Positions 12,734-25,875 of a DNA stretch of 32,000 bases are shown here, one piece after another. Within the stretch, counting starts at the first letter, position 1. Each line of letters starts with the position of its first letter. The notes beneath the pieces were generated by a model. It saw nothing but the letters and a program-made list of their open reading frames with translations, was not told the origin of the DNA and made no database searches. The stretch covers positions 2,683 through 34,682 of the forward strand of contig VXNP01000060.1 in assembly GCA_009840525.1 (NCBI GenBank), in the 5' to 3' direction. The DNA is from Gammaproteobacteria bacterium. GTDB lineage: Bacteria > Gemmatimonadota > Gemmatimonadetes > Longimicrobiales > Gaopeijiaceae. The position numbers and the translations under genes are program-made.

Positions 12734-13570
12734 TCAGCGCATCCTGATGGCCGCCCCCACGCCCGCAAAGAAGTCTTCGGCGGCATCGTTCAGCCCGACG
12801 CCGACCCGGACATCCCATTGCGAATCGTCGGCTGTGAGCCAGGTCAGGCCCGCGTTGAAGTAGTGTTCCTGCGGGGCATCGGCCCCCGTGGGGAAGAACG
12901 CGTACCATTCGCCGTACACGCCCCCGCGCGTCCCGACGCCGGCGCCCGCGACCGCCGACTGGGCCCACTCCGGGTAGCTGTCCTCGCCATCCGCGACGGC
13001 CAGGTTGACCTGCGTGCTGCCCGCCAGGGAGAGTCCTCCGGGCGCCTCCCAACTGTAGACGAGATTCACGCCCGGCAGCGCGCGTCCGCCGGAGAACAGC
13101 GTGCTGCCCGTGGGCAGGGTCATCTGCGGCAGGACCGCGAGCGCCGGAAGGCGACCCGTCTGCCGGGTGAGTTCGACCTTGGCCCCCAGGTAGAGGTCCT
13201 CGATCCCGCTGTCGCTGGCTCCGCTGCCCGCGGAGCTCACGCGGGTCACCGGGCTGGCCGCCACCCGGAGTTCGAGCCAGTCCGCCGCAACCCCCGCGCG
13301 CAGCAGCAGTTCGCCCAGCGTATGCGTCTGGACCGAATTGCCGTCGGACCAGTCTCCGCCGAACGTGTAACCGAACTCGATCTGGAGAACGCCCCGGCCC
13401 ACGGCGGATGCCGCTTCCGTGAAATCGGGGCGATCGGCAGTCAGGGGACGGGACGCCGGGGCAGCCGGTGCCCCCACGGGCTCCTGCGCGGACCCATTCA
13501 TCGGGCGCCCGAGCATCGTGCCGACCGCCAGGGCGGCGAGCAGAACGCCCGGAGCCGGTCGAGTCGTCAT
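12734..13570 (-). CDS. Outer-membrane beta-barrel, MetA-pathway/phenol-degradation-like transporter family
   Basis: In track ORF 12734..13672 I prefer the ATG at 13570, which gives the signal MTTRPAPGVLLAALAVGTML. Family-typical TADRPDFTEAAS motif. Alternating beta-strand pattern. Aromatic-rich C-terminal region (DFFAGVGAAIRMR). Confidence 0.6.
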   Translation of the reverse strand: MTTRPAPGVLLAALAVGTMLGRPMNGSAQEPVGAPAAPASRPLTADRPDFTEAASAVGRGVLQIEFGYTFGGDWSDGNSVQTHTLGELLLRAGVAADWLELRVAASPVTRVSSAGSGASDSGIEDLYLGAKVELTRQTGRLPALAVLPQMTLPTGSTLFSGGRALPGVNLVYSWEAPGGLSLAGSTQVNLAVADGEDSYPEWAQSAVAGAGVGTRGGVYGEWYAFFPTGADAPQEHYFNAGLTWLTADDSQWDVRVGVGLNDAAEDFFAGVGAAIRMR

Positions 13571-13822
13571 CTCCAGCAGCTCTCCCAGGTAGTTGGGACA
13601 CGAAACGTACCGGAACGCGCCCCCTCCTGGAACCAGAGGGCTGGCGGCTGGTTTGGGGGCAGTAGCCGACATGAAGCGGCGACCCCTGTTGCCGCCCCTT
13701 GCGCCGCCTGCCCATCGCTATCGCCGTCCCCCTTGCCTGAAGGCACCGTGTACCTTCACCTTGATTCGCGCCAAACAACCGTTGCGGACGACTTTAACGC
13801 CAGTGCCTCTCCAGGACCTGCC

Positions 13823-14866
13823 ATGCCTCTGCGTCGACTATCCGATGGACTGAAGGCCGCGTTCGGCGAAACGAACGTCAGCCGTCGCGTGCGGGATTTC
13901 GAAGGATGGACGGACAGAGCGTTCGGCGCGGATGGCGGCGCAGCCGACTACGACCACACCCGGACCGTAACGGAGTACTACGACCTTTGCAACGAATTGA
14001 TGGTCTTCCACTGGGGAGAATCCCTGCACTTCGCGCCGCTGTCGCCCGACGAGAGCCTGAAGGACTCAAAGATTCGGCACCAGCGGCAGATGATCGCCAA
14101 GCTGGAACTGCGTGAAGGCATGACGGTGGCCGACATCGGTTGCGGCGTCGGGGGTCCAATGCGCCGCGTCGCCCGCGAGGCCGGGGTCCGGGTATTGGGA
14201 ATCAACAGCAATGAAGTCCAACTGAGCAGGGCCAGGTCGCTGAATGCCGAGGCGGGGCTCGATCACCTGGTTGACTGCCTCGCTTGCAGCTTCATGAATA
14301 TGAGCTCCATCGCAGACGCCACCTTCGACCGGGGCTACGCGATCGAATCGACCTGCCATGCTCCCGACAAGGCGGGCGCGTTTGCCGAAATCCACCGTAT
14401 CCTCAAGCCCGGAGCCCTTTTCTGGGGCCAGGAAATGTGCATGACGGATATGTACAATCCCGACGACGATCGCCACCGGGCCATCAAGCGGGAACTGATG
14501 CACGGCATCGCGCTTCAGGACATTGCAACGTTCGGTGAGGTAGACCGGGCCCTCGAAGCCGCGGGATTCGAGGTCCTCGAGGCGACAGACCTCGCTGTCG
14601 ACGAGACCGGTCCGGCGACGCCGTGGTATCGGCCCCTGGAAACCCGGCACGGATGGCTCGGCACCGCTCTCTTCCGGACTCCCATGGGCCGCAAGGTGTT
14701 TTCCTGGGGAACCCGGCTGGCCGAGCTTCTGCGGGTGTTCCCAAAGGGATCGGCGGAGGTTGCCAAACTCATGGATCGGACTGCAGACGCCTATGTCGAC
14801 GGCGGCAGGACCGGGATCTTCACGCCGCTCTACTGCTTCCTGGCGCGCAAGCCTCTTCAGGGCTAG
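13823..14866 (+). CDS. Sterol C-24-methyltransferase (ERG6/SMT1)-type SAM-dependent methyltransferase homologue
   Basis: This is the C-terminal 347 codons of track ORF 12818..14866, from the ATG at 13823. Several blocks align by eye with yeast Erg6. YYDLCNELMVFHWGESLHFAP matches YYDL..YEYGWG.SFHF. VADIGCGVGGPMRRVA is the SAM motif I. YAIESTCHAPDKAGAFAEIHRILKPG matches YAIEATCHAP. The Sterol_MT_C-like tail is PWYRPL...GIFTPLYCFLARKP. The upstream part of the track ORF is antisense to the barrel gene. Confidence 0.85.
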   Translation: MPLRRLSDGLKAAFGETNVSRRVRDFEGWTDRAFGADGGAADYDHTRTVTEYYDLCNELMVFHWGESLHFAPLSPDESLKDSKIRHQRQMIAKLELREGMTVADIGCGVGGPMRRVAREAGVRVLGINSNEVQLSRARSLNAEAGLDHLVDCLACSFMNMSSIADATFDRGYAIESTCHAPDKAGAFAEIHRILKPGALFWGQEMCMTDMYNPDDDRHRAIKRELMHGIALQDIATFGEVDRALEAAGFEVLEATDLAVDETGPATPWYRPLETRHGWLGTALFRTPMGRKVFSWGTRLAELLRVFPKGSAEVAKLMDRTADAYVDGGRTGIFTPLYCFLARKPLQG

Positions 14867-17800
14867 GAGCCCCGGGTGGTCAAGTGCAGGCGCAGCGAGG
14901 AAAGCGCGGGCACCAGGAACATCAGGATGGCCGTGGTGAAGAGGATGCCGCACCCGATCGAGGCGGAGAAGGGGACGAAGAACTGCGCCTGAATGGCGTC
15001 TTCGAGAATCAGCGGCGTAAAGCCGAGGAAGGTGGTGAGCGAAGTCAGCATGATCGGGCGAAAACGGCCCTTGGCCCCCTCGATGATCGCCTCGCGCGCC
15101 GGAAGGCCCTCCTCAAGTTCCTGATCGATGAAGTCCATCATGACCAGGGAATCGTTCACCACCACGCCGGCCAGGCCGAATATCCCGACAAAGGACTCCG
15201 CGCTCACCGCCACTCCCAGGATCCAGTGGCCCAGGATCACGCCGACGAACCCGAACGGGATGATGGCCATGATGATGAACGGCTTGGTATAGGAACGCAG
15301 CGGAATGGCCAGCAGCGCGAAGATAATCAGCAACGCTATCGCGAAGCCGCGGTAGAGCGCACCCAGAGAGTCGATCTGCTGCTGTTGTTCGCCACCAAAG
15401 GCGTAGGTCAGGTCAGGCTCCGTATCGACCAGTCCCGCGAGGATGGTGTTCTCCAGAATGCCATTGGCTTCCCCGGCGGAAATCACACTTGCGTCTACAT
15501 CGGCAGTGACCGTGGCGACGCGTTGGCCGTCCTGGCGACGGATGGCCGGCGGCGACATGGCCGCGCTCAGTGAAGCCACGCGGCTCACCGGCACCTCGGC
15601 GCCGGTTGCCGTACGGACGAGGTAGCTCTCGATGTCGGTGATCGAGTTGCGCTGCTCCTCGGGCAGCCGGACGTAGACCCGGACTTCGTCGCGTCCCCGC
15701 TGCACCCGCAGGGCCTCCGCGCCAAAGAAGGCGGCTCTCGTCTGCCGGGCAAGCGCGTCGAGCGTGAGGCCGAGGGTTCGTGCTTCGGGCAGCAATCCCA
15801 ACTGGACTTCCGGGATGCCGGGCGTGTGGTCCGAGCGAATGTCGAAGACACCCCCCACTCGACGGAGCTCATCGACCACGGACGATGCAATCGTAACCAG
15901 GCGCTCCGGATCCGGATGGGACAGCACGGCTTCCACCGGGTTGCCCAGCGTGTAGATCTCGCTCATGAAGGTGATCCCGCGCACATGGGGCAGGATGCCC
16001 ACCTCCTCACGCCAGGCCTGCATGACTTCTCCCGACGTGATGCGCCGCTGCTGCGCCGGCAGGAGCTTGAACTCGATGGTGGCGATGTTGGCTTCGGGGT
16101 TCAGCGTGGGCGAGGGGTTGAGACCTCCGGTCTCGATCCGCGACCGCTGGCCGACGACAACCGTAACGCCGGACAGAAGCGGAGACGCATCTTCGGGCCG
16201 GCCCTCGGAAAGACGCTGGATGACCCGGTGACCGGCCGCCTCCAGTTCCCGTGCCACCGCATCCGTCTGCTGCGCGGTGGTTCCGTCCGGCATCTGAAGG
16301 GTGGCGGTTACGAAGTCCCCCTCGACCTCGGTCGCGAAGGTGGTCGGTACGATGCCGGCCGGCAGCAGGGAAACGGTGAGTATGAAGAGAGCGACGGCTG
16401 CGGAGAGCGTCACGCCGGGTCGATCGGTCGCGAACCGCATCCCGTGATCCAGGGGGCCCTGTATGAAACTGTTCAGCAGGGAGTCGACCCGACCCTGGAT
16501 GCGGCCGACGAACCGCTCCGCGCCGGTGCGGGGCGCCCAGTCCGGACCGTGCAGATGGTGCGACAGGTGGTTGGGCAGCACCAGCAGCGATTCGATCAGC
16601 GAGATCACCAGCATGGCGATGACGATGATGGGCAGCGCCTTCCAGACTTCTCCGAACCCCGCGGGAATGAAGAGCAGGGGAACGAACGCAACGATGGTGG
16701 TGAGCACCGCGAAGATCAGCGGCACCTTGATCCGCCGCGCACCGCGGATGGCGGCGACAGTGCCCGGCGTCCCTCGCATTCGTTCCAGATGAATATGTTC
16801 GGCGACGACGATCGCATCGTCCACGATGATTCCGATGGCGAGTACGAACGAGAAGAGCGAGACAGCGTGGATCGGGATGTCGAACACCATCATGGCGGCC
16901 AGGGCGCCGATCCCCGCAACGCCAAGGCCGACGGCTACCCAGAAGGCCAGCCGGACTTCCAGAAACAGGCCCAGCGCGATCAACACCAGCAGCAGCCCCA
17001 GAGCCCCGTTCTTGAGGAGGAGGGCGCCACGCTCCGAGAACGCCGTGGAATCGTCGTTCCAGATGGTCACGCCCACGCCGCCGGGGAGTGAAGGCACCAC
17101 CTCGTTCGCCACATGCTCCTTGACGGCACGGGCCACGCTCATGACCCTTTCGCCCTCCGCCCGGGATACCTCGACGAAGACGGCGGGCCGGCCCTGATGC
17201 CGCACGATCAGATCGGAGTCCTGGAAACCGTCGCGCACCTCGGCGACGTCACCCAGACGCACGACCGTGCCGTCGTCCCGGCTGAGGAGAACGATTTCCT
17301 CGAAATCCTGTTGGTCGTAGCTCTGGCCAAGTGTGCGCACCCGCACCTGGGACTCCCGGGTATCGATGCTCCCCGCGGACAGGTCCAGTGAGTTACTGCG
17401 AATCGTGTTCGCGATGTCGGTCAGGGTCAGGCCGAGAGCCCTGAGACGCTGCAGCGGCACCTCGATCGAAACCTCGTAGTTGCGCACTCCGCTGGTCACG
17501 ACCTGGGAGACGGAGGGAAGCGCAGCGAGTTCGTCTTCGATCCGGTACGCGAGTTCCTTCAGCGAGCGCTCGGGAACGTCGCCGTAGACGATCAGCCGAA
17601 TCATGCTCTGGGCGTTGGTCATCTCGCGTATCTGGGGCCGCTCGGCTCCGCCCGGAAACGTCTGAATACGCCCGACCGCCGACTCGATCTCGTCCTTCTT
17701 GGCGCCCATGTCCGTGCCGGAGTTGACTTCAACCCTGACGGACGCCATCCCCGGGGCGGCTATGGACCTGACCGCCTTCACATCGGCGAGTCCCCTGACC

Positions 17801-18042
17801 TGGTCCTCGATCTTGACGACGATGGCCTCTTCAACCTCCTCGGGGGTTGCGCCGGGGAAGGGCACGGAGATCTCGAACTGGTTGAAGGGTACCTCGGGCC
17901 ATCCCTCCTGCTCGAGACCGGTCAGCGACACCAGGCCCGCTGCGATGATCCCGAGCATCAGCAGATTGGCGGCGACGCTGTTGCTCGCCATATAGGCAAT
18001 GGGGCCGCCCGGTTCGCCGTGGTTGTCTGGGTTCCGACTCAT
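14863..18042 (-). CDS. RND-superfamily inner-membrane permease (AcrB/HAE-like), no cognate adaptor or outer-membrane factor adjacent
   Basis: Track ORF, 1059 aa. The N-terminus PIAYMASNSVAANLLMLGIIAAGL is typical of RND permeases. It has 12 TM segments in a 1+large loop+5 repeat architecture. Conserved TM4 region: AIGIIVDDAIVVAEHI. Its stop overlaps the methyltransferase stop in the palindrome CTAG (14863-14866). Confidence 0.9.
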   Translation of the reverse strand: MSRNPDNHGEPGGPIAYMASNSVAANLLMLGIIAAGLVSLTGLEQEGWPEVPFNQFEISVPFPGATPEEVEEAIVVKIEDQVRGLADVKAVRSIAAPGMASVRVEVNSGTDMGAKKDEIESAVGRIQTFPGGAERPQIREMTNAQSMIRLIVYGDVPERSLKELAYRIEDELAALPSVSQVVTSGVRNYEVSIEVPLQRLRALGLTLTDIANTIRSNSLDLSAGSIDTRESQVRVRTLGQSYDQQDFEEIVLLSRDDGTVVRLGDVAEVRDGFQDSDLIVRHQGRPAVFVEVSRAEGERVMSVARAVKEHVANEVVPSLPGGVGVTIWNDDSTAFSERGALLLKNGALGLLLVLIALGLFLEVRLAFWVAVGLGVAGIGALAAMMVFDIPIHAVSLFSFVLAIGIIVDDAIVVAEHIHLERMRGTPGTVAAIRGARRIKVPLIFAVLTTIVAFVPLLFIPAGFGEVWKALPIIVIAMLVISLIESLLVLPNHLSHHLHGPDWAPRTGAERFVGRIQGRVDSLLNSFIQGPLDHGMRFATDRPGVTLSAAVALFILTVSLLPAGIVPTTFATEVEGDFVTATLQMPDGTTAQQTDAVARELEAAGHRVIQRLSEGRPEDASPLLSGVTVVVGQRSRIETGGLNPSPTLNPEANIATIEFKLLPAQQRRITSGEVMQAWREEVGILPHVRGITFMSEIYTLGNPVEAVLSHPDPERLVTIASSVVDELRRVGGVFDIRSDHTPGIPEVQLGLLPEARTLGLTLDALARQTRAAFFGAEALRVQRGRDEVRVYVRLPEEQRNSITDIESYLVRTATGAEVPVSRVASLSAAMSPPAIRRQDGQRVATVTADVDASVISAGEANGILENTILAGLVDTEPDLTYAFGGEQQQQIDSLGALYRGFAIALLIIFALLAIPLRSYTKPFIIMAIIPFGFVGVILGHWILGVAVSAESFVGIFGLAGVVVNDSLVMMDFIDQELEEGLPAREAIIEGAKGRFRPIMLTSLTTFLGFTPLILEDAIQAQFFVPFSASIGCGILFTTAILMFLVPALSSLRLHLTTRGS

Positions 18043-18230
18043 TTGTGCTGGATCGGCCTGGGTGTGGACGAGGGACGCGCACGGACAGGATACTCATTGG
18101 GTACTCGCCGTGCACCGTCAAGGCACCCCGCGGTGCCCGCGATACCGCCGGCGAACGCGATCCGGGGATCGGCCCTCGAAGAACCGTCCGGTGTTGCGTC
18201 ACAACGACGCTTTCTCGCGACAGATTCCGT

Positions 18231-18260
18231 TTGACGCAGCCGTGCCCGTGGAGCTATGCT
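18231..18260 (+). promoter_or_regulatory. Candidate sigma70-like promoter upstream of the P450 gene
   Basis: TTGACG (18231-18236), an 18-nt spacer, then TATGCT (18255-18260). It lies in a locally AT-richer patch of the 377-bp divergent intergenic region between the RND and P450 genes. Confidence 0.3.
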
Positions 18261-18419
18261 CATGCTCAAGTGTATCTTAGCTGTAGCAAGCTCGGGTTTG
18301 GGCGACCGCCGAAACGGGGCTGAACCTTCCGTCCCGGCGTCTGACGAAGAGAAACGGAGCATGAGGTTGCCGAGGTTGGTGAGGCAGTCTTCCCGTATCG
18401 AGACGAGGGGCCAACGCTG

Positions 18420-20447
18420 ATGGCCGTTGCGACAGAGAATGTCTCCACCCAGGCGCTGACGCTGCCCGAGGAGCTCATCCTGATGCTCCTCAACGAGGAA
18501 AACGGCTACTTCCACCAGGTACCCGGCTGGCGGCTGCATTGCGCCGTCATCGGCGCGGTGCTCGCGGAACTCTCGCTCCTGACGCGCATCGACACGGACA
18601 TGGAGTCGCTGTTCCTGGTGGACGCGACGGAAACGGGCGACCCCGCACTGGACCCCATTCTGGAGGAAATCGCAGGCGAGCAAGTTCAACGGAACGCCCA
18701 GTACTGGATCGAGCGCCTCGCGCACCGTGCCGAATCGATCATCGATCTGACGCTGGACCGGCTGGTTGAACTCAAGATCCTGGAACATCACGACGGCGAG
18801 TTCTGGACCTTGGCTCGCAGGGTCTGGCAGACGGAACTGTACGGCGGCACCGAGGAAGGCACCGCGCGCCAGTTCATCAGGACGCGCATCGGCAAGGTCA
18901 TCTTCACCGAGGAGATCCCCGACCCGAGAGACATCATCATCATCTGCCTGGTGAACTCGTGTGATGTCTTTCGTTTCATATTCCAACTGGACGACGAGGC
19001 CCACGAGCGCATCGAGCTCATCTGCAAGATGGACCTGATCGGCCGCTCGATCGCGGCCGCGGTGGTGACCAACCTCGGTGGCCCGGTGGTTCAACGGTCC
19101 CGCCTCGCGAAGCAGATTCCGCGTGCCTCGCTGCGCAAGTTGCTGTCGAACCCTCACCTGCGTAGTGGCAACCTGCCCGCGCTCGTCGCGGATCTGGCCA
19201 GGGAGTACGGCCCGGTGTTCGAGCTCCGGCCGCCGTTCTCGCAACCCATGGTCTTCCTTGCCGGACCACGGGCAAACCGCGGGGTGAATCGGCACGGGCG
19301 CAGATATCTGAGAGCCAGGGACTATTTCGCCGACTTCGAGCAAGTCTATGGTGCGTCCGGAGTCCTGCCCTCCCTGGATGGCGCAGACCACTTCCGGCTT
19401 CGCAGGGCCATGGCGCCAGGCGTCTCGCGCGCGAGGCTGGCGGGACAGGGAGACCTGTTGTTTCGTCAGGCCCGTGCATACATGGCGGATTGGGCGGTGG
19501 GTGACACCTACCCGGCAAGACGCCTTTGCCGACGCATGATCAACAGCCAGATCTCTCCTCTCATGTTGAGCGTGGATTCGCAGGATATCATCGACGATCT
19601 GATCGTGTTCAAGGAACGCGCACTCAACGTCCACATCCTGAACGGCCTTCCCAAGTTCATGCTGAAGACCCCGGGAATGAAGCGCCGGGCGCAGGCCGTG
19701 GAGACGTTGCTGGAACGGGTCTACAGCGTCCATACTCCCGCCCAGCGGGCCGGCTGCCCGCGCAGCCTTGCCGATGACTGGCTGAGCCTGCACGCGAGCG
19801 ATCCACAGTTCGTACCGGAGTCGAATCTGCGGTTCGCCCTGTCGGCCGCGCTGGTTGCCAGCGTGTATCTCGGGGATGGATTCAACTGCGCGCTCTATGC
19901 CATGGCGTCACAGCCAGAGCTCTATGCCAGAATCCGGGATGAGGCCGGTGTGTTCTTCCAAAACGGGGAACCGGATGGCGACGACCTCAACCTTTCCGCG
20001 ATGGACGTCACCCGCCGTTTCATCAAGGAATGCCTGCGGCTGTACCCGATCGTCCCGATGTCCATGCGGAACGTGATGAACACCTGGGTGGTCGAGAACT
20101 ACGAGATACCGATTGGAACGCGGGTCGCCATCGCCCAGACAGCCTCGCATTTCATGGAGGATGTTTTCCCGGACCCCTTCACCTTCGATATCGACCGCTA
20201 CAAGGATCCCCGCAATGAGCACCGCAGCCCGGGGTACGCTCCCTATGGCCTGGGCACACACAGGTGCCTCGGCTCCCGGTGGATGGAGTTGCAACTGGGC
20301 GTCAACCTCCTTCTGGTCGCGCACTACTTCACGATCGAGGTGTCCCCGGCGAACTACAAGTTCCGATTCAGCCCCTTTCCGTCGATGAAGCCGAGCAAGG
20401 ACCTCAAGTTCCGCATCGCAGAGCAGGTGCGCGAGCTGCCGTCCTGA
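18420..20447 (+). CDS. Fusion protein: N-terminal GPP34/GOLPH3-family domain + C-terminal cytochrome P450
   Basis: Track ORF, 675 aa. Residues ~10-225 follow the GPP34 pattern: LTLPEELILMLLNEENGYF, GAVLAELSLLTRI, TGDPALDPILEEI, DPRDIIIICLVNSCDV. The C-terminal ~430 aa is a P450. It has the K-helix ExxR (KECLRLYP), a PERF-like FDIDRY, and the haem loop YAPYGLGTHRCLGSRW (Cys codon at 20265). Confidence 0.85.
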   Translation: MAVATENVSTQALTLPEELILMLLNEENGYFHQVPGWRLHCAVIGAVLAELSLLTRIDTDMESLFLVDATETGDPALDPILEEIAGEQVQRNAQYWIERLAHRAESIIDLTLDRLVELKILEHHDGEFWTLARRVWQTELYGGTEEGTARQFIRTRIGKVIFTEEIPDPRDIIIICLVNSCDVFRFIFQLDDEAHERIELICKMDLIGRSIAAAVVTNLGGPVVQRSRLAKQIPRASLRKLLSNPHLRSGNLPALVADLAREYGPVFELRPPFSQPMVFLAGPRANRGVNRHGRRYLRARDYFADFEQVYGASGVLPSLDGADHFRLRRAMAPGVSRARLAGQGDLLFRQARAYMADWAVGDTYPARRLCRRMINSQISPLMLSVDSQDIIDDLIVFKERALNVHILNGLPKFMLKTPGMKRRAQAVETLLERVYSVHTPAQRAGCPRSLADDWLSLHASDPQFVPESNLRFALSAALVASVYLGDGFNCALYAMASQPELYARIRDEAGVFFQNGEPDGDDLNLSAMDVTRRFIKECLRLYPIVPMSMRNVMNTWVVENYEIPIGTRVAIAQTASHFMEDVFPDPFTFDIDRYKDPRNEHRSPGYAPYGLGTHRCLGSRWMELQLGVNLLLVAHYFTIEVSPANYKFRFSPFPSMKPSKDLKFRIAEQVRELPS

Positions 20448-20452
20448 CCGCG

Positions 20453-21490
20453 TTGGGTGATGCGGGCGGGCGGCGGGCATCGACCTCCGTCCACAGCCAC
20501 GGCCTCCCGCCCCTCCTCCGAAGCATCCCCGTCATTGCGGCGCTGGCCGCCTGCGGCGGTGACTCCGGTACCGAGCCGCCCGGGGAGCCGCCACGCGCCC
20601 CCGCCGCCATTGTGGTCGTGTCGGGGGGCGGGCAGGAGGGGATGGCGGGCAGCCCGCTCGCCGAGCCCGTGGTGGTGCGGGTGGACGACGCGGGCGGCTC
20701 GCCGTTCGCGGGCGTCACCGTGACCTTCTCCGCCGCCGCCGGGCACGGATCCGCCGACCCGGCCACCGCGGCCACCGACGCGGCCGGCCTGGCCCGCACG
20801 ACCTGGACGCTCGGCGATGCGGCCGGCGCCCAGACCCTCACGGCGTCGGTGGCCGGGGGAGTGTCGACCGACATCCGTGCGGCCGCGGGAGAGCTTCCCT
20901 CCCCGCCCGACTCCGCCGTCTACAGCGTCGTCTTCAACGCCACCTGGAGCGCCGCCACCCACCCGACCGACTACCCGGGCGGCGCGCACTTCTCGCCGCT
21001 CATCGGCGCGGTGCACGACGACGGCGTCCGCTTCTGGGCGAGCGGCGAGACGGCCACCCCCGGCATCGAGAGCATGGCCGAGACGGGAGGGACCAGCACG
21101 CTCAGGTCGGAAATCCGCGCGCACCTCCCGGCCGCCGTCCTCTCCGTCATCAGCGGACCCGGCCTCGGCACCAGCCCCGCCAGCGCGACCGTCTCCCGCG
21201 TCGTCGTCCGGGGGGACTACCCCCTCGTCACCCTGGTCACCATGATCGCGCCGAGCCCCGACTGGTTCGTGGGCGTTTCCGCGCTGTCGCTGATGGACGA
21301 CCTGGGGCTGTGGGTGGACGAACTCCAGGTCACCCTCTATCCCTACGACTCGGGCACCGACGACGGAACCACCTGCACCTCCGCCAACGCCGACTCCTCG
21401 CCCAGGCAGCCCATCCGCAGCCTCCGCGGCATGACCCCGTTCTCGGACGCGCCCATCGGAACGTTCACGTTCACGCGAGTCGGGGGCTAG
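20453..21490 (+). CDS. Lipoprotein with Ig-like (Big-type) domain + Spondin_N domain
   Basis: Same frame as track ORF 20264..21490, but that ORF start overlaps the P450 3' end. The first in-frame start after the P450 stop is the TTG at 20453, so the start is tentative. Lipobox: IPVIAALAAC-GGDSG. Ig-like unit: IVVVSGGGQEGMAGSPLAEPVVVRVDDAGGSPFAGVTVTF. Spondin_N blocks: YSVVFNATWSAATHP, HFSPLIGAVHD, IAPSPDWFVGVS, LYPYDSGTDDG. Confidence 0.8.
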   Translation: MGDAGGRRASTSVHSHGLPPLLRSIPVIAALAACGGDSGTEPPGEPPRAPAAIVVVSGGGQEGMAGSPLAEPVVVRVDDAGGSPFAGVTVTFSAAAGHGSADPATAATDAAGLARTTWTLGDAAGAQTLTASVAGGVSTDIRAAAGELPSPPDSAVYSVVFNATWSAATHPTDYPGGAHFSPLIGAVHDDGVRFWASGETATPGIESMAETGGTSTLRSEIRAHLPAAVLSVISGPGLGTSPASATVSRVVVRGDYPLVTLVTMIAPSPDWFVGVSALSLMDDLGLWVDELQVTLYPYDSGTDDGTTCTSANADSSPRQPIRSLRGMTPFSDAPIGTFTFTRVGG

Positions 21491-21523
21491 GCGCAGGCCT
21501 GGTGTCGCTGGCCGGGACCCGAT

Positions 21524-22735
21524 CTACCAGTCCGACGAGTGCTCGTCGTGCAGCGCGGTCGGCAACCGGTACGAGTACCTCAGCTTCTCGAAGCCGGCGA
21601 ACTCCATGAGGGTGTCGAACCGGGCGCGATCCTGCTTCGCCCCCAAGCGGGGAAGCACCTTGCGGATGACGCCCCGGGACCGGTTCTGAATCCGCATCCA
21701 GGGGATCACCTTCCGCCTGCGGGTGGGAAACAGGAATGAATCGGCGAGCTTCTCGCCGATCAGCTCCCGTGACGCCTGGGTCACGACGCGGGCCATTTTC
21801 CGGCGCTCTGCGGGGTCCGTGACACCGATGATGACGGGCGCGCTGTTCACGATGCTGTTGGCCATGATGATGGCGTCCAGGTCCGCGGGAGGTTCGCACA
21901 TGGAGCCGATCTCGAACGCCCGGCAAGCCGAGGCTTCGTCGTCGAAGATGAGATCCTCCGGGATGCCCATCAGCAGCCCCGTGTAGCGCCAGACGTGGAT
22001 GTAGGCCTCCCGCTCCTCCGTGCTGAAGTCGCCCCCCAGCGTGGCCACGTGCCGCATCAGCCGGCCCGAGAAGGCCGCCCCGGCCAGGAGCACGTGCGCG
22101 GCGCTGATCGGCTCTCCCAGCCGGTCGTGATCCCATTCATCGGACTGGTTGATCAGGTATCGGGACTGAGCGTGCACCAGCCGGACGCGCAGGGTGAGCC
22201 TCCATCCGTCCCCCCCGGGTTCCATTCCACCCGGCAGGTACTGCTCGACAAGCTGCATCCCGTTCTGCTTGAGGCGCCGCACACCCGAGTTGGTGACCCG
22301 TCCCCGGATCCGGAACGACTTGCTGATCAGGGTGGAGAACCCCTCGACGATGCTGCCGCCCACCAGGGCCGCGAGAACGATGTCCGAGTTTCGCAGAAAG
22401 GCGCGCGAGGCCATGCGGGCGATGTCGGCATCGAACCAGTCCGGCACGGCGGTCGAGTACTCCACGAACTCGACGAGGGAATCGGGGGCGCCCGTCTGCG
22501 GTGCGTGGGGATTGTCCAGTGCCTGCGCCAGCGTCTGGTGCAGTTCCCCGGGATCCAGGTCCGAAAGATCCCGAACGACGGCATCCGCCAGCGGATCGCC
22601 GATCATCGTGTTGCGGACGTAGGCCTCCGCGAGCTCCGGATCGTGCTGGCGGGCGGCCTCGTATCCCGCGACGTAGGCACCGGGTACTTCCAAACCCTCT
22701 CCCGAACCGGCTCGCAGCGGCGGCTGGCGGATCAT
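21524..22735 (-). CDS. MpaB / Lcp (rubber-oxygenase catalytic domain, ex-DUF2236) family oxygenase
   Basis: Track ORF, 403 aa. Family-like blocks: GDPLADAVV near the N-terminus, VPDWFD, RLTLRVRLVHA, and HVWRYTGLLMGIPE. It is the last cistron of the minus-strand Rieske operon, with a 25-nt gap after the P450-tail ORF. Confidence 0.7.
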   Translation of the reverse strand: MIRQPPLRAGSGEGLEVPGAYVAGYEAARQHDPELAEAYVRNTMIGDPLADAVVRDLSDLDPGELHQTLAQALDNPHAPQTGAPDSLVEFVEYSTAVPDWFDADIARMASRAFLRNSDIVLAALVGGSIVEGFSTLISKSFRIRGRVTNSGVRRLKQNGMQLVEQYLPGGMEPGGDGWRLTLRVRLVHAQSRYLINQSDEWDHDRLGEPISAAHVLLAGAAFSGRLMRHVATLGGDFSTEEREAYIHVWRYTGLLMGIPEDLIFDDEASACRAFEIGSMCEPPADLDAIIMANSIVNSAPVIIGVTDPAERRKMARVVTQASRELIGEKLADSFLFPTRRRKVIPWMRIQNRSRGVIRKVLPRLGAKQDRARFDTLMEFAGFEKLRYSYRLPTALHDEHSSDW

Positions 22736-22760
22736 CGTCTTCCGAGGATGAATCCGCGTC

Positions 22761-22928
22761 TCAGACCGGCACCTCGCAGACCCTCCCGGCGATGCGGAAC
22801 TCCGGCTTCCGGCTCGGCTTCATCGACGGGAAGGGGCTGACACGGTGCTCGTAGTTCTTCGGCGCCACCTCGAGCGTAAAGTGATGCGCCATCATCAGTA
22901 CGTTCACCATGAGCTTCAGTTCCATCAT
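22761..22928 (-). pseudogene. Relic of a second cytochrome P450 (C-terminal 54 residues only), preserved as a 55-codon ORF translationally coupled to the Rieske gene
   Basis: It encodes MMELKLMVNVLMMAHHFTLEVAPKNYEHRVSPFPSMKPSRKPEFRIAGRVCEVPV. This aligns without gaps to the last 54 aa of the P450 at 18420..20447 (MELQLGVNLLLVAHYFTIEVSPANYKFRFSPFPSMKPSKDLKFRIAEQVRELPS). By hand alignment 33 of 54 residues are identical. No haem-Cys loop lies upstream. Its first ATG (22926-22928) overlaps the Rieske TGA (22925-22927) as ATGA. Confidence 0.75.
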
Positions 22929-24055
22929 GTCCCGTTCCCCTCCGGCAGATGCCCGGATCCGATTCGATCCGCCCACGCGCGGCGCAGCTCACGATCCGAA
23001 GCTGGACCGGCGGTCTTACTCATACCTATGTCGGAGTAGAACTGACGGCAATACAGCCGGTACTTGCCGATGGGCCCGTCGGCCCGGCAGAGACGCGGCG
23101 GGGACTGGTAGCGCTTCCGCTCCCAGATCACCACGTCCTGCGCCACGAACCGCCGCTCCTCGTAGATCAGGATGCGGTTCATCAGCCTGTTGCGGAGCTT
23201 CTTCGGCAGGAACCCCAGCCCGGCGATGTAGCGCCCGGGCCTGGCGACTTCGCGCGCCTGGCTGACCAGCGTCAACTCGACGAACTCGCCGTCGACCGGA
23301 GTCGAGAGGACCCACAGCCTGGAATCCATGCCGATCGTCTTCTCGTGAACCTCGACGAACGAGTAGCCCAGCCCATGGACGTGGGTGACGGCCGAGACCT
23401 CGGATACGATGTCGATCAGCCCCGCGACGGTGCGGACGTTCGTGAACTCGAAGCAGCTCTTCAGGTAGGCGCCGTCGATGGAAAAGGCTGTCGGTTCCAC
23501 ATCCCGGTAGCCGTGCGTGTACTCCAGATGCTCCACGTCCACGGAGTTCTCGGTCGTCTCCTGGGGATGGCCACGGAAGCGCATGGTGGTGGAACGCAGC
23601 CCGCTCCAGTCCGCGCCCGTGGGGGGCTCCTCCGGCAGATCCCACTGCGGCGCCCGCCCACCGGCGCCATACCAGGCGAAGACCATGCCCAGGATCTCCC
23701 GGGTCTCGTAGAGCTTGAGCTTCGCGGCCCTGGGGGCCGGGGCGTTGGGCGTGGCGACGCACTGGCCGGTGGCATCGAAGGTGAAGCCGTGGAAGGGACA
23801 CACCAGGCAGCCGTCCCGGATGGTGCCGCCGGCCGTCGGCCCCAGGTGCGAGCCCAGGTGGGGGCAGAACGCGTCCGCCACGCAGACGCGGCCGTCGTCG
23901 TCGCACCAGGCGACGATCTGCTCGCCCATCCAGGTCTTCTCGATGAGCTTTTCCGTCAGCAGGGTGTCGCGCGTCGCGATGAAGTACCACCCCTCCGGGA
24001 ACGGAGGCAGTCGATCGACGCGGCGCGGGATCCGCCCGTTGGCTTTCGGGATCAT
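22925..24055 (-). CDS. Rieske [2Fe-2S] non-haem-iron oxygenase (KshA / Neverland / SdmA-like class)
   Basis: Track ORF, 376 aa. Rieske ligands: CPHLGSHL...CPFHGF. Mononuclear-iron motif: ENSVDVEHLEYTH (D-x2-H-x4-H). The C-terminal block QDVVIWERKRY..P.L..ADGPIGKYRLYCRQFY resembles what I recall from Neverland-type steroid desaturases. Confidence 0.85.
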   Translation of the reverse strand: MIPKANGRIPRRVDRLPPFPEGWYFIATRDTLLTEKLIEKTWMGEQIVAWCDDDGRVCVADAFCPHLGSHLGPTAGGTIRDGCLVCPFHGFTFDATGQCVATPNAPAPRAAKLKLYETREILGMVFAWYGAGGRAPQWDLPEEPPTGADWSGLRSTTMRFRGHPQETTENSVDVEHLEYTHGYRDVEPTAFSIDGAYLKSCFEFTNVRTVAGLIDIVSEVSAVTHVHGLGYSFVEVHEKTIGMDSRLWVLSTPVDGEFVELTLVSQAREVARPGRYIAGLGFLPKKLRNRLMNRILIYEERRFVAQDVVIWERKRYQSPPRLCRADGPIGKYRLYCRQFYSDIGMSKTAGPASDRELRRAWADRIGSGHLPEGNGT

Positions 24056-24195: not shown

Positions 24196-25248
24196 TCAAC
24201 ACGGTCCTTCTCCCTTACCCGCATGCGATGCCTGCGTGGTCGCTTTGGGCTTCAGGACGACGACGGGAACTCCGCTCGACTCGTTTTCCGGCAGGGGAGA
24301 CTTGCCCAGCTTCTGCCCCATCGCCTTCACGCTCTTGAGTCCGGCCAGTTCCTCGGCACCGGCGATCGCCTCGTGATCCGCATCGTAGTAGTCGAACCAC
24401 GGTAGTCCGGCCTTGGCATACTGTCTTGCCGTCGGCGGGACGGTGGGAGGATGCTCTCCGGTAATGGCCATCCACTGTGCCGAGTTCGCCATCGTGACGA
24501 AGCATCGGCTGCCGTGCTCCTGGTCCCAGACGTCCAGTCCATGAGGATCGTCGTAGATCTCCTGGCGCATGCGGCCGCCGGGGGCCAGACCCATCTCCTT
24601 GGCGGGCGGGCTGCAGACCATATCGAACCCGTCGGGCGGTGGCGAACGCCGCATCTCGTCCGCCAACGACTCTTCGTACCTCCTCAGCAACTCGTCGAAG
24701 ACCTTCCGCTTCATCGGGTACGCCGCAATCTGGAGCCCACCGTGCACCGCTTCGCCGGTGAGCTGTTCCTCGGCCGTGTATCCATCGCCCAGCGGCATCG
24801 CTACGAACTGCCGGATGACGCCCTCCTCGACGCAGTAGCCGTCCAGCCACGGCTGCTCGGGCAGCACGACATAGTTCTGCGGATCCTGGCTCAGGCCTTC
24901 TTCCCACGGCTGACCGCTGATCGCGCAGATCTTTCCAGTGGCGATCTTCACGGCCACCGGGTATGGGTGCCTGAAGCGCTCGTCGTATCCCACATCGAAG
25001 CTGATCCAGAGTGCCTCGGCCTGGTGAATCGGCATCACGACACCGCCGCGACGCACCATCTCGCGCTTAAGGCGATCCTCGAAGTCGTCGAGGTGGCGCA
25101 GCGGAAACCGCCCCAGCCCCGGCGGCAGGTAGTAGGTCCGGTCATCGTCCGGAATCCGCAGGGTTCTCTGGAACTCGATGCTGCACCGGGCGTCGGCATG
25201 TACGTCCGGGAACCGGAACGTCAACTGATCGTGCTCGAGTGTGATCAT
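24196..25248 (-). CDS. Conserved-looking hypothetical protein (350 aa), family not recognised
   Basis: In track ORF 24196..25269 (TTG start) I prefer the ATG at 25248, with AGGAG 11 nt upstream. It has no TM segment or signal peptide. Distinctive blocks: FQRTLRIPDDDRTYYLPPGLGRFPLRHLDDF, PQNYVVLPEQPWLDGYCVEEGVIRQFVAMPLGDGYTAEEQLTG, and AGLPWFDYYD. It lies 32 nt downstream of the XRE gene stop. Confidence 0.6.
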   Translation of the reverse strand: MITLEHDQLTFRFPDVHADARCSIEFQRTLRIPDDDRTYYLPPGLGRFPLRHLDDFEDRLKREMVRRGGVVMPIHQAEALWISFDVGYDERFRHPYPVAVKIATGKICAISGQPWEEGLSQDPQNYVVLPEQPWLDGYCVEEGVIRQFVAMPLGDGYTAEEQLTGEAVHGGLQIAAYPMKRKVFDELLRRYEESLADEMRRSPPPDGFDMVCSPPAKEMGLAPGGRMRQEIYDDPHGLDVWDQEHGSRCFVTMANSAQWMAITGEHPPTVPPTARQYAKAGLPWFDYYDADHEAIAGAEELAGLKSVKAMGQKLGKSPLPENESSGVPVVVLKPKATTQASHAGKGEGPC

Positions 25249-25280
25249 TGCGTTTGGTGCTCCTGTCAAAGGGTGAGTGT

Positions 25281-25634: not shown

Positions 25635-25666
25635 CGCAAGTCGGAGGTGTGAGTAGTGTGTCATAC

Positions 25667-25700
25667 ATAGTACACGCTCATAGGTGGTTCGGCAACCACC
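25667..25700 (-). promoter_or_regulatory. Candidate promoter of the XRE gene with a perfect palindrome over the -35
   Basis: On the minus strand, TTGCCG (plus 25690-25695), a 17-nt spacer, then TACTAT (plus 25667-25672). A perfect inverted repeat GGTGGTT-cggc-AACCACC (25683-25700) is centred on the -35 hexamer. The surrounding patch is locally AT-rich. Confidence 0.4.
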
Positions 25701-25875
25701 CAGCGGGTTGAGTGCGAACCCGAACGACAGCTGGCGCTGTCTCAACGCTCGCGAAGATGGGCCGGATCACCCGCGGAGATGTTGCCTGAACGTCACGCCG
25801 AACTCACCGTGGATGTTCAGCCGCTACGCTTGTGGAAGCGGCTGGCGAGACCGGCTTGACCGCACGAGGTGATCC

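Follow-up and report, generated by a model that had tools for sequence, protein, structure and literature searches.

A recurrent gene module of sponge-symbiont-type bacteria, built around a GPP34-fused P450, may tailor and move sterol-like lipids

The 32-kb stretch of DNA analysed here (the window) contains a gene module that proved to be conserved in a comparison with about 170 related loci. Its invariant core is made up of three genes, for a GPP34-fused P450, a Rieske oxygenase of the KshA_C type and a transporter of the RND superfamily; a sterol-methyltransferase (SMT) homologue and a flavin amine-oxidase-like protein are often added to it. The module enzymes are distinct in sequence from CYP51, SdmA and canonical SMTs, and the module probably tailors and moves sterol-like lipids, as judged from its relatives and its genomic context.

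Genes were checked across the window using GC3 frame analysis and Pfam profiles. All genes described in the first-pass annotation are present at the positions it gave, and the profiles of the families it had named (Sterol_MT_C, GPP34, P450, Rieske, MPAB_Lcp_cat, ACR_tran and Phenol_MetA_deg) each matched their gene. The features are:

12734..13672, minus strand: outer-membrane beta-barrel, Phenol_MetA_deg family (Pfam 92.8 bits; also called as a gene in L001)
13823..14866, plus strand: SMT homologue, 347 aa (Sterol_MT_C 60.3 bits and class-I methyltransferase domains)
14863..18042, minus strand: AcrB-type (HAE1) RND permease (ACR_tran 516.7 bits)
18043..18419, no strand: divergent spacer of 377 bp between the RND and GPP34-P450 genes (from coordinates)
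18420..20447, plus strand: GPP34-P450 fusion (Pfam GPP34 101.8 bits, P450 121.3 bits)
20453..21490, plus strand: Big_1 and Spondin_N lipoprotein (Pfam Spond_N 159.5 bits, Big_1 35.5 bits; NCBIfam spondin domain; gene call)
21524..22735, minus strand: MpaB/Lcp-family oxygenase homologue (MPAB_Lcp_cat 61.9 bits)
22761..22928, minus strand: 55-aa mini-ORF, P450 tail (similarity to the window fusion; called as a gene in L001)
22925..24055, minus strand: Rieske [2Fe-2S] oxygenase (Pfam Rieske 58.8 bits, KshA_C 80.9 bits)

The SMT and RND genes are convergent, the 3' end of the former sharing 4 bp with the latter, and the RND gene is in turn divergent from the GPP34-P450 gene; the 377 bp separating these two are presumed to be a shared regulatory region. 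The barrel gene is divergent from the SMT gene, and the MpaB gene is the final gene of the minus-strand Rieske operon. The lipoprotein gene, the one gene that had been overlooked before, starts 5 bp 3' of the fusion gene. Pfam and further searches of the 32-kb window found neither an oxidosqualene cyclase (OSC) nor a squalene epoxidase, in agreement with the first-pass annotation, and no CYP51, ERG24 or SdmAB; ferredoxin or reductase partner genes are absent from the vicinity of the module genes. The GC content dips to 0.62-0.66 over 14-20 kb of the window, with flanks at 0.68-0.73, and the SMT-RND pair shows 89-95% nucleotide identity to Gemmatimonadota loci with unrelated flanks. We consider it rather likely that the module is mobile by horizontal transfer and that the locus represents a rearranged copy.

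An SMT-anchored scan using one genome per species yielded at least 583 matching stretches, of which the best 80 loci were tabulated. Among these 80, a transporter is located at most 400 bp from the SMT gene in 58 (41 MMPL, 17 AcrB), a P450 is present in 60 (with contiguous GPP34 in 57), a Rieske gene accompanies the fusion gene in 58 and a flavin amine-oxidase-like protein occurs in 36, while transporter, P450 and Rieske are found together in 51. Seven loci sampled with the P450 as anchor all contained a Rieske/KshA_C protein and an RND-superfamily transporter, four the flavin oxidase and only two the SMT; the SMT, initially described as part of the cluster, is thus a frequent companion outside the invariant core. 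Gene order and strand vary among lineages and the content is retained. Since the same families recur jointly in dozens of independent genomes, the combination is not due to chance.

This conservation of the neighbourhood applies to the P450, Rieske and RND genes and does not extend to the MpaB and barrel genes, which had been counted among the cluster and are essentially confined to the lineage of the window. The barrel gene, whose translation has a visible signal peptide (N-terminus MTTRPAPGVLLAALAVGTMLGRPMNGSAQE) and which may instead start at 13570, giving 278 aa, was found only in that lineage and in L094, a related lineage from the metagenome set with the same chromosomal site. The spondin protein (lipobox LAAC) occurs in these two and in L055, the sole extra among the genome loci. 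MpaB homologues were found only in L001, L003, L009 and L013, plus L128, in which a distant copy (39% identical) lies 3.5 kb from the module; the window protein matches the rubber oxygenase Lcp with 52 bits. All three genes are additions of the window lineage and not conserved partners.

Genomes with the module carry at least 11 phylum labels, and the module was found only in sponge-symbiont-type MAGs and metagenomes. In the metagenome scan, all SMTs with at least 58% identity belonged to accession series, four of them documented sponge series (Petrosia, Sarcotragus, Aplysina), and every contig with a module-type SMT from a placeable series was of sponge origin; the next matches, with at most 47% identity, were canonical SMTs from other series. 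Bacterial SMTs of sponge symbionts have already been published (PMC10070321), as has the GPP34-P450 architecture, which was found in sponge symbionts only and is transcribed in Aplysina; the flanks of the long form were outside the scope of that study, and sterols and methyltransferases are unmentioned (PMC11706023). The view that the gene combination was unknown is correct in that it matches no characterised pathway, and has to be corrected for these individually published parts. Their linkage appears to be unpublished so far and, if our interpretation is true, the module joins two findings that have hitherto been treated apart.

A physical link to sterol synthesis is present in some lineages. 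In the Binatia locus L068, the module adjoins genes for SdmB-like and SdmA-like proteins (the latter 407.6 bits), a canonical SMT, an SMO-OSC fusion, a true CYP51 (363 bits) and ERG24. The same situation, with the module within a canonical de novo sterol cluster, was observed in three Nitrospira-type contigs (L083, L084 and L092), and L154 matches this arrangement in part. Three contigs, matched by size, carry both the GPP34-P450 fusion and SMO-OSC. Few of the related loci have sterol-cluster genes within 10 kb. Each module enzyme has sterol-active proteins as its closest known relatives (ERG6, CYP51, KshA/KshA_C), and since genuine CYP51, SdmA/SdmB and ERG6-like SMT are encoded alongside, the module enzymes are best regarded as extra sterol-type paralogues. 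The earlier proposal that the genes act jointly on a sterol-like lipid is thus supported for the core by linkage and sterol-cluster context; it does not carry over to MpaB and the barrel.

In the fusion protein, GPP34 spans residues 15-215 and the P450 residues about 236-675, and both domains are present in all 120 top homologues. The heme-cysteine loop (YGLGTHRCLG), ExxR and PERF are all intact. The I-helix, mapped by MAFFT and phmmer, reads ASVYLGD without the acid-threonine pair, which is missing in all 64 P450 copies tabulated. Because these usual oxygen-activation residues are missing, ordinary hydroxylation by this P450 is not to be assumed. The closest solved structure is the CYP51 of Methylococcus with just 83-84 bits. 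The mini-ORF, already noted as a P450 tail, is real: it shares 62% identity (E 6e-20) with the C-terminal 53 residues (622-674) of the window fusion, and its similarity to the CYP51 tail is not significant (E 4.6), which marks it as the C-terminal remnant of a second module-type GPP34-P450 gene. In L094 the order is Rieske, AcrB and then an intact GPP34-P450. The Rieske oxygenase has intact CxH...CxxH and DxxHxxxxH motifs, as read from its sequence; it scores 78.8 bits against the N-terminal half of KshA and 34 bits against the SdmA model, for which the cut-off is 600.

The window SMT has an intact SAM motif and is 34% identical to yeast ERG6 over the full length. With more than 100 SMTs of related genome and sponge-metagenome loci it shares 58-93% identity, and with canonical bacterial SMTs 41-47%. 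Identity to ERG6 is 30-39% for module-type and 39-47% for canonical SMTs, and Region I, which in the window protein reads YYDLCNELMVFHWGESLHF, differs; the module-type SMTs belong to a separate clade with an altered sterol-binding Region I. They lack Phe89 of the GWGxxFHF motif, which according to a 2025 preprint is conserved in every SMT active on desmosterol or 24-methylenecholesterol. The "second" SMT copies listed as analysed by Brown et al. are module-type, judged on synteny and identity, and thus, without Phe89, are probably inactive on both sterols. The substrate of module-type SMTs may be different from these two.

The window RND is an AcrB-type permease by its profile scores, and an assignment to the BstA/HpnN type was rejected. 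Its NCBIfam RND_permease_2 score is 404.7 bits (cut-off 1250), and its best solved relatives are the multidrug efflux permeases MdtB, MexK and MexB (204-236 bits). Membrane-fusion and outer-membrane-factor genes are absent across the full 32 kb, so the permease is partnerless here, as had been described; its orthologues (72-73% identical), however, are located in OMF-MFP-RND-GPP34-P450 operons. Chloroflexota, Alphaproteobacteria and Dadabacteria have an MMPL-type partner with Sterol-sensing and Patched domains (TIGRFAM HpnN 107.5 bits, cut-off 751.85), and other lineages an AcrB-type transporter, mostly within OMF-MFP-RND operons. MMPL and AcrB are swapped at the equivalent position between loci.

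From these data we infer a substrate class, an order of steps, a role for GPP34 and a direction of transport. The substrate would be a sterol or a near polycyclic triterpenoid in the cytoplasmic membrane, supplied by the bacterium itself if it has an OSC cluster and by the sponge host otherwise. The GPP34 domain might keep the otherwise soluble cytoplasmic P450 at the membrane, or pass the lipid to it. The P450 and the Rieske oxygenase would oxidise the lipid, the SMT homologue, where present, would methylate it SAM-dependently, and the product would leave the inner membrane via the RND transporter, the type of which depends on the lineage. In the window, the barrel and the lipoprotein beside the partnerless pump may supply the outer-membrane and periplasmic steps, and the MpaB-type oxygenase would replace the second P450 copy.

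It is also conceivable, albeit unlikely, that the module detoxifies and expels non-sterol lipophilic sponge metabolites, such as terpenoid defence compounds, which the P450, Rieske and flavin oxidase would alter and a tripartite RND pump would remove. P450, oxygenase and efflux pump form a pattern of detoxification systems too, the window RND is closest to multidrug pumps among solved structures, and the operons of its orthologues, immediately 5' of the fusion gene, have efflux-pump architecture; moreover, the SMT is missing in five of the seven P450-anchored loci, and the probable inactivity of module-type SMTs on two common sterols points the same way. Against this stand the sterol-active nearest relatives of each enzyme, the HpnN-type MMPL with its sterol-sensing domain as alternative transporter, the adjacent SMT homologue in most loci found, and the position that the module has in Binatia and Nitrospira-type contigs, inside de novo sterol clusters. 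A published hypothesis sees GPP34-P450 as an effector of eukaryote-like type which, by binding phosphatidylinositol-4-phosphate of the host, disturbs phagosome maturation, its neighbours being unrelated. The GPP34 domain is bona fide by Pfam (101.8 bits), and the fusion is expressed and reported from sponge symbionts only (PMC11706023). Yet that study leaves aside the flanks of the long form, sterols and methyltransferases, neither a signal peptide nor a secretion motif is seen at the N-terminus of the translation, the protein belongs to the heme proteins and has kept its P450 motifs, GPP34-Rieske fusions exist as well, and the fusion is kept beside a cytoplasmic Rieske, often a flavin oxidase and a SAM methyltransferase, and a transporter across at least 11 phylum labels. 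The residue at the position of the GOLPH3 arginine R90 is Ile or Ala when the protein is aligned, with low confidence, to Vps74. An effector function seems improbable to us.

Domain families alone would allow the enzymes to be an ERG6 orthologue, a CYP51 14-demethylase and an SdmA C-4 demethylase, so that the cluster would be part of the sterol cluster already known from sponge symbionts; KEGG-style annotation leads to SMT1/ERG6 and possibly CYP51 (PMC9531527), and CYP51 is the best solved match of the P450. This is very improbable, and contradicted by the genuine copies side by side: in L068 the score of the true CYP51 is 363 bits versus 83-84 for the module P450, and that of the SdmA-like protein is 407.6 versus 27-34 for the module Rieske; the SMTs differ in Region I and in ERG6 identity (39-47% canonical, 30-39% module type). 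A chance juxtaposition without functional unity would fit the lineage-specific MpaB, barrel and spondin genes and the visible rearrangement of the locus, but hardly any weight is left for it by the core genes, which recur jointly and in varying order across many phyla, in dozens of species-level genomes.

CYP51 has an I-helix His-Thr that the module P450 lacks. Eukaryotic sterol P450s have an N-terminal membrane anchor, whereas the module P450 has an N-terminal GPP34 domain, which might act as a substitute. In Methylococcus, sterol genes share an operon with genes for an inner-membrane RND protein (BstA), a periplasmic and an outer-membrane protein (PMC10942540); this is a precedent for the combination of an RND protein with sterol genes.

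The order of the genes in the window, which has a G+C content of 68%, was derived from GC3 frame analysis together with Pfam and NCBIfam searches.

Genes of the window (positions in nucleotides, strand, product)
1-1425, minus: RecQ
1482-3995 (ORF), minus: amidase, domain in the C-terminal ~470 aa
3125-4099, minus: GFO/IDH/MocA oxidoreductase
4101-5279, minus: triple RidA-like protein
5551-6984, plus: weak TLC/MFS-like transporter
7017-8111, minus: FAD protein
8178-10796, plus: S9 peptidase
10810-12675, plus: xanthine permease
12734-13672, minus: Phenol_MetA_deg outer-membrane barrel
13823-14866, plus: sterol methyltransferase (SMT) homologue
14863-18042, minus: AcrB-type RND permease
18420-20447, plus: GPP34-P450 fusion
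20453-21490, plus: Big_1/Spondin_N lipoprotein
21524-22735, minus: MpaB/Lcp homologue
22761-22928, minus: 55-aa ORF
22925-24055, minus: Rieske/KshA_C oxygenase
24196-25269, minus: 357-aa protein without family
25281-25745, minus: HTH regulator
25876-27552, plus: TAT-signal amidase
27844-28761, plus: ABC ATPase
28667-29644, plus: ABC-2 permease
29278-31461 (ORF), plus: amidohydrolase/CIA30

The first-pass annotation had proposed a cluster for sterol tailoring and trafficking at 12734-24055. All genes that it listed were recovered by the frame analysis and the Pfam and NCBIfam searches, but the list was not complete, as the spondin lipoprotein had been overlooked. Its statement that the window contains neither an oxidosqualene cyclase nor a squalene epoxidase agrees with our domain searches of the whole window; CYP51, ERG24 and SdmAB are likewise absent from the genes of the window, and core sterol biosynthetic genes are missing there. 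The MpaB/Lcp homologue matches MPAB_Lcp_cat in Pfam with 61.9 bits and the rubber oxygenase Lcp with 52 bits. The transporter at 5551-6984 reaches 34.6 bits to TLC ATP/ADP translocases, which are typical of host-dependent bacteria, and is kept in the lineage of the window and in the related metagenome locus L094. Immediately upstream of the Rieske gene, and on the same strand as it, is the gene for the 357-aa protein, with that of the XRE-type HTH regulator next to it; neither Pfam nor NCBIfam matches this protein, and none of the related loci examined has a homologue. L094, which reaches the far-side amidase gene, lacks both this protein and the regulator and has an AAA-ATPase-like ORF there.

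Linkage of these genes in other genomes was determined with two scans. The first was anchored on the SMT, with an SMT alignment as query and one genome per species, and gave at least 583 matching stretches. On the best 80 of these we mapped the window proteins and newly recognised neighbours, using per-locus maps; single-linkage clustering of all ORFs merges families through shadow ORFs. The labels of these 80 loci comprise Gemmatimonadota, Gammaproteobacteria, Alphaproteobacteria, Dehalococcoidia/Chloroflexota, Dadabacteria, Rhodothermales, Thermodesulfobacteriota, Acidobacteriota, Binatia, Acidimicrobiales and Nitrospinota; among homologues of the fusion protein there are also labels of Nitrospira, Opitutae and Latescibacteria. 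An RND-superfamily transporter is located at most 400 bp from the SMT in 58 of the 80 loci, 41 of these being MMPL proteins with Sterol-sensing/Patched domains and 17 AcrB-type. A P450 is present in 60 of the 80 (with a contiguous GPP34 domain in 57 of these 60), a Rieske protein in 58 and a flavin amine-oxidase-like protein in 36, whereas the SMT stands alone in 11 of the 80. Gene order and orientation differ by lineage, but the content is constant. Conservation of the neighbourhood in related genomes had been named as a check by the first-pass annotation: transporter, P450 and Rieske protein occur together in 51 of the 80 SMT-anchored loci, and all seven loci of the second, P450-anchored scan contain an RND-superfamily transporter and a KshA_C-type Rieske gene beside the fusion, with a flavin oxidase in four and an SMT in two of the seven. 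These counts show that GPP34-P450, Rieske protein and RND transporter form the invariant core of what we here call the module, and that SMT and flavin oxidase are frequent additions. The gene set originally proposed as one unit thus stands for P450, Rieske and RND, with the SMT as a frequent addition, but not for MpaB and the barrel. Among the genome loci, these two are restricted to the lineage of the window, and the spondin protein has a single additional occurrence in L055; all three were therefore rejected as core members. A distant MpaB lies near the module in one locus of the metagenome scan (L128). At one of the P450-anchored loci (L170, 4925-6261), a Methyltransf_21 protein and a weak member of the FA_hydroxylase family (the ERG3/ERG25 family) are encoded beside two SMT homologues and the module.

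The fusion protein carries a nearly complete GPP34 domain (Pfam 101.8 bits, profile positions 1-198 of 201) and a P450 domain (Pfam p450 121.3 bits), and both domains are present in 120 of the 120 best homologues listed. Direct similarity of the GPP34 domain to Vps74/GOLPH3 is weak (E 0.02-0.3). The PI4P-binding residues of GOLPH3 are W81, R90, R171 and R174; a short alignment to Vps74, of low confidence, places Ile or Ala at the R90 position and a Trp 3 residues out of register. The P450 domain was searched for the marks of the superfamily, the heme-thiolate loop FxxGxxxCxG, ExxR and PERF: the heme loop is present as YGLGTHRCLG, and E302/R305 as well as F354/D357/R358 are invariant. Over the whole P450 domain the closest solved relative is CYP51, with 83-84 bits to the Methylococcus enzyme and 22% identity in a MAFFT alignment, compared with 363 bits for the genuine CYP51 of the Binatia locus L068. 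In two independent alignments, the I-helix AGHHTS of CYP51 (signature A-G-x-H-T-S) aligns to ASVYLG of the module P450. This ASxYLG-type segment, with Tyr followed by Leu, Val or Met, is found in 63 of 64 copies and the remaining copy reads ACESMGN; the acid-threonine pair was found in none of the 64 I-helices, nor was the threonine itself. The lower score and the missing His-Thr rule out that the module P450 is a CYP51. An AlphaFold2 model of the fusion built from 34 homologues (pLDDT 63, pTM 0.50) was not good enough to search for similar folds or to judge the domain interface.

What had been called a P450-tail mini-ORF in the window, the 55-aa ORF at 22761-22928, aligns to the C-terminal 53 residues of the window's own fusion with 62% identity (E 6e-20). 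Similarity also extends to the tails of other module P450s, whereas that to CYP51 is not significant. By its sequence match it is what remains of a second GPP34-P450 that was lost. Duplicate GPP34-P450 genes, in tandem or close together, were observed in L039, L055, L088, L120/L126 and L068, and since some of them are only 31-47% identical to that of the window, several paralogous clades of the fusion exist.

The Rieske protein matches the Rieske (58.8 bits) and, over the full profile, the KshA_C (80.9 bits) models of Pfam, and its metal motifs CPHLGSHL...CPFHG and DVEHLEYTH are present and intact. Domain searches of the 32-kb window revealed no reductase gene and thus no KshB-type reductase. 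With the NCBIfam SdmA equivalog NF052579 (cut-off 600) the window Rieske scores 34 bits and the module Rieskes 27-34 bits, compared with 407.6 bits for an SdmA-like neighbour in L068, which has VanA_C instead of KshA_C; identity of the module Rieske with SdmA is thereby ruled out. The subfamily has 452 representatives at E <= 1e-30 in a search of 1.84 billion representatives, and the ten clusters looked up carry informative names that are only generic, such as 'Rieske 2Fe-2S domain-containing protein'. For the flavin oxidase the best solved match is LkcE (100 bits), and the NCBIfam match covers the dinucleotide-binding N-terminus only.

The transporter of the window is of the AcrB type (ACR_tran) and not an MMPL; it reaches 20 bits with HpnN, and the NCBIfam BstA model gave no match to it. 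Domain searches of the whole 32-kb window found no genes for a membrane-fusion protein or an outer-membrane factor. The earlier description of an RND permease lacking adaptor and outer-membrane partner is therefore correct for the window but does not extend to its 72-73% identical orthologues, which have OEP and BSH_RND partners (L165, L167, L170 and L171). In the P450-anchored loci, six of the seven transporters are orthologues of the window RND (72-73% identity where measured), encoded immediately upstream of the fusion gene in operons of the MFP-RND or OMF-MFP-RND type. The remaining locus, L168, has an MMPL instead, together with a LolA-like protein and an outer-membrane barrel. MMPL partners from other lineages bear Sterol-sensing/Patched domains. 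The module MMPLs score 107.5 bits with the TIGRFAM HpnN model (cut-off 751.85), 67 bits with the NCBIfam HpnN model (cut-off 1100) and 32 bits with BstA (cut-off 1400), and no BstB or BstC homologues were seen at module loci. An MFS transporter together with a weak, sub-threshold LppX/LprG-like protein is added in 13 of the 80 SMT-anchored loci. In these 13 loci, among them L063 (15646-17939), the transporter is of the DHA2 type and the LppX/LprG-family match has 20.7 bits (cut-off 24), a pairing that recalls the mycobacterial LprG-MFS lipid transport pair.

A connection to sterols comes from loci in which the module is contiguous with genes of de novo sterol clusters (SMO-OSC, CYP51, ERG24, SdmAB), namely L068, L083/L092 and L154. 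In L068 the module adjoins an SdmB-like protein (300 bits), the SdmA-like protein, a canonical SMT (the ERG6-like type of de novo clusters), an SMO-OSC fusion, the true CYP51 and ERG24. The Nitrospira-type contig MKWU01000439.1 (L083/L084/L092) has the order sdmB, sdmA, ERG24, CYP51, SMO-OSC, canonical SMT, module SMT, GPP34-P450. Among the matches listed, at least three contigs, judged by their equal lengths, are common to the SMT, fusion and SMO-OSC searches. Since the module enzymes are found alongside genuine CYP51, SdmA and ERG6-like SMT, they are additional paralogues.

The SMT of the window was annotated at first pass as an ERG6/SMT1-type homologue, in agreement with an end-to-end match to yeast ERG6 of 198 bits (34% identity over 348 columns), compared with 81 bits and partial coverage for the best non-SMT methyltransferase in the PDB. 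The numbering of the ERG6 sequence used agrees with the motif positions of a 2025 preprint. In Pfam, the protein reaches 60.3 bits with Sterol_MT_C (cut-off 21.7; profile positions 5-65 of 66) and 56.9 bits with Methyltransf_11. Of the motifs expected for an SMT, the Region II SAM motif DxGxGxxGP and Region III YAIE(A/S)TCHAP, both are present in the alignment with ERG6, as DIGCGVGGP and YAIESTCHAP. Canonical SMTs are 39-47% identical to ERG6 and 41-47% to the window SMT, whereas the values for module-type SMTs are 30-39% and, in related loci, 58-93%. The two types differ in Region I, which reads YYDLVTDFYE[YF]GWGxSFHF in canonical and YYDLC[SNG]E[FL]MV[FY][GH]W[GS]ESLHF in module-type proteins. 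According to the 2025 preprint, every SMT with activity on desmosterol or 24-methylenecholesterol conserves 84-GWGxxFHF-91, T78 and L341. The window SMT has HWGESLHF at this place and the clade consensus is GWGESLHF; Leu89 is found in every module-type SMT that matches the Region I search pattern, while the canonical neighbouring SMTs keep GWGxSFHF. Position 78 is Ser, Asn or Gly in module-type SMTs, and position 341 is Met in the window SMT. The window SMT (residue 63) furthermore has His where ERG6 has Gly84, a position reported as conserved in all SMTs assayed by the Welander group; the same His occurs in L003 as the sole related genome locus and in ~12 of roughly 120 close homologues, about 10%.

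For the Aplysina contig of Brown et al. (PMC10070321), Supplementary Data 1 gives a '2 of 2' SMT that is 35.16% identical to ERG6. The comparison with the SMTs tested there was made by synteny with MKWU01000439.1, as contig JGIcombinedJ30088_10000835 was not returned by the metagenome scan. The gene order of MKWU01000439.1 reproduces that of the Aplysina contig, so that by synteny and identity the '2 of 2' SMT is of the module type; its unlabelled neighbour presumably encodes the fusion. The module-type copies listed as analysed by Brown et al. are probably inactive on desmosterol and 24-methylenecholesterol, since they have Leu89 and an altered position 78 in place of the motif residues of active SMTs, to which the window SMT adds Met341. 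Contigs with a canonical SMT only, from accession series other than the sponge ones, were also seen (L139-L164, for example L140 6938-9021 and L152 9938-12023). In at least 14 of them the gene immediately after the canonical SMT (43-47% identity to ERG6) encodes a Rieske and KshA_C protein of 327 aa with 24-29% identity to the window Rieske; the SMT-Rieske pairing appears to reach beyond the sponge accession series.

Among the matches listed for the metagenome collection, which are indicative only, all SMTs at least 58% identical to the query are from the series LXNJ, LXNI, MKWU, JGIcombinedJ30088, Ga0209021, Ga0209022, Ga0209754, Ga0209544 and JGI2479x, and the next matches are canonical, at most 47% identical and from other accession series. 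Four of the former series are documented as Petrosia, Sarcotragus and Aplysina metagenomes, and the remaining ones are presumably from sponges as well. An SMT identical to that of the window is present on two ENA metagenome scaffolds. The fusion architecture has been reported in 76-93% of sponge-symbiont genomes of several phyla and in none of their free-living relatives, and is reported to be transcribed (PMC11706023), whereas an OSC-containing cluster was found in 21% of MAGs by Kelly et al. 2022 (PMC9531527). The two datasets cannot be compared in detail, but the difference suggests that sterol synthesis is lacking in many bacteria with the module.

Parts of the module seem to have moved recently. 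The SMT-RND pair (13823-18042) has 89-95% nucleotide identity to the Gemmatimonadota MAG loci L004 and L006, although the flanks are unrelated and the P450 shows only ~73-75% protein identity to the same loci. Within the window's lineage, the SMT/barrel region (12.5-14.9 kb) is 84-96% identical compared with 94-100% for the adjoining RND and permease genes, and the GC content dips to 0.62-0.66 across 14-20 kb of the window. The near-identity despite unrelated flanks, the SMT/barrel divergence and the GC dip suggest a recent horizontal exchange of the SMT-RND pair. L094 occupies the same chromosomal site as the window, with flanks (TLC-like transporter, FAD protein, peptidase, permease, amidase) that are 88-94% identical; its operon is intact and runs Rieske, AcrB, GPP34-P450, SMT. 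L094 also contains, at 11052-11168, a 39-aa relic that is 90% identical to the window-type RND. The relics are thus reciprocal, a P450 tail in the window and an RND fragment in L094, showing that module copies were replaced or exchanged at one site; MpaB in the window occupies the place of the former second P450. L003 on the one hand and L009, L012 and L013 on the other show mostly 90-99% protein identity to the window and carry conflicting labels, Gemmatimonadetes (one MAG) versus Gammaproteobacteria (three).

The best-supported reading is that the module would be a tailoring-and-export unit for a sterol-like lipid. The GPP34 domain would serve as a membrane tether or as a lipid-presenting domain for the P450, and the analogy with BstABC and HpnN suggests an outward movement of the product through the RND or MMPL component. 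The main rival explanation is detoxification and efflux of non-sterol metabolites. The published idea that GPP34-P450 is a PI4P effector fits poorly, as the protein is a heme enzyme without signal peptide that is locked in a metabolic operon. That the module consists of ordinary CYP51, SdmA and ERG6 enzymes is contradicted by the direct score and motif tests, and genuine copies coexist beside the module.

A tailoring-and-export unit could also be part of a wider, and in our view improbable, scenario, in which the module would be a near-universal symbiosis trait in microbe-rich sponges that takes up host or community sterols, remodels them by unusual chemistry (with a P450 lacking the oxygen-activation threonine and an SMT clade with a de-aromatised Region I) and exports them to the cell surface or the host. 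The SMT clade may methylate away from C-24; candidates are C-26, as the missing '26-SMT' of the 26-methylstigmastane sponge biomarker, or the sterol nucleus, as for nematode STRM-1. If the symbiosis scenario were true, bacteria and not the animal would make some 'sponge-specific' sterols, and the GPP34 'phagocytosis-evasion' factor would be a lipid-metabolic enzyme.

Two findings that were previously read separately, the enrichment of sterol genes and SMTs and the sponge-only GPP34-P450, here belong to one conserved neighbourhood, and their joint occurrence with a steroid-type Rieske protein and lipid transporters gives GPP34-P450 a testable biochemical role. Since the cited survey finds GPP34-P450 in the majority of symbiont genomes of several phyla, the lipid handled by the module, whatever it is, is likely to be of central importance for bacterial life within sponges. 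The discrete module-type SMT clade, whose members probably failed in the published standard-sterol assays, bears on the debated bacterial origin of the 'sponge' sterane biomarkers 24-isopropylcholestane and 26-methylstigmastane. A full-text literature search found no paper linking GPP34 with sterols in sponges and none describing the module, consistent with the initial remark that the arrangement matches no characterised pathway. While the parts are known, their linkage and its implications appear to be new; in kind, the module would belong to the bacterial sterol-related clusters of sponge symbionts, with a function predicted from sequence.

The individual components can be compared with several known systems. 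The window Rieske shares the Rieske and KshA_C architecture of KshA, the 3-ketosteroid 9-alpha-hydroxylase, but it resembles KshA itself over the N-terminal ~160 residues only (phmmer match at residues 19-181 only, 78.8 bits). Heme loop, ExxR and PERF are kept in both CYP51 and the window fusion, which has an N-terminal GPP34 domain in place of a membrane helix or a ferredoxin fusion. Nematodes employ STRM-1 (an SMT-family C-4 methylase), DAF-36 (a Rieske 7-desaturase) and DAF-9 (a P450). These are the same three enzyme families as in the module, and the nematode set works on acquired sterol and not in de novo synthesis; this analogy at the family level suggests methylation of the sterol nucleus as a possible alternative activity of the SMT homologue.

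With BstABC and HpnN (PMC10942540) the module shares an RND-superfamily inner-membrane protein encoded with triterpenoid-tailoring enzymes, and periplasmic and outer-membrane components alongside: the LolA-like protein and barrel in L168, the lipoprotein and barrel in the window. The module MMPLs belong to the same MMPL family and have a sterol-sensing domain, but they score far below the BstA and HpnN cut-offs, and the window transporter is ACR_tran. The sponge-symbiont sterol clusters (PMC10070321; 'CSGs' in PMC9531527) occur in the same bacterial groups and sponge hosts, with SMT homologues that are enriched and horizontally transferred. The window differs in that it lacks the core biosynthetic genes and that its P450 and Rieske protein are not CYP51 and SdmA; the searched parts of those papers mention no GPP34, RND or MMPL, and no P450 or Rieske protein beyond CYP51 and SdmA. 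GPP34_L, the GPP34 and cytochrome P450 fusion of sponge symbionts (PMC11706023, Microbiome 2025), has exactly the architecture of the window protein. It was proposed to bind PI4P and to evade phagocytosis; flanking genes were analysed for the short form only, and sterols and methyltransferases are unmentioned. Here, in contrast, the fusion is linked to Rieske proteins, RND/MMPL transporters, flavin oxidases and SMT homologues and, in some lineages, to sterol clusters.
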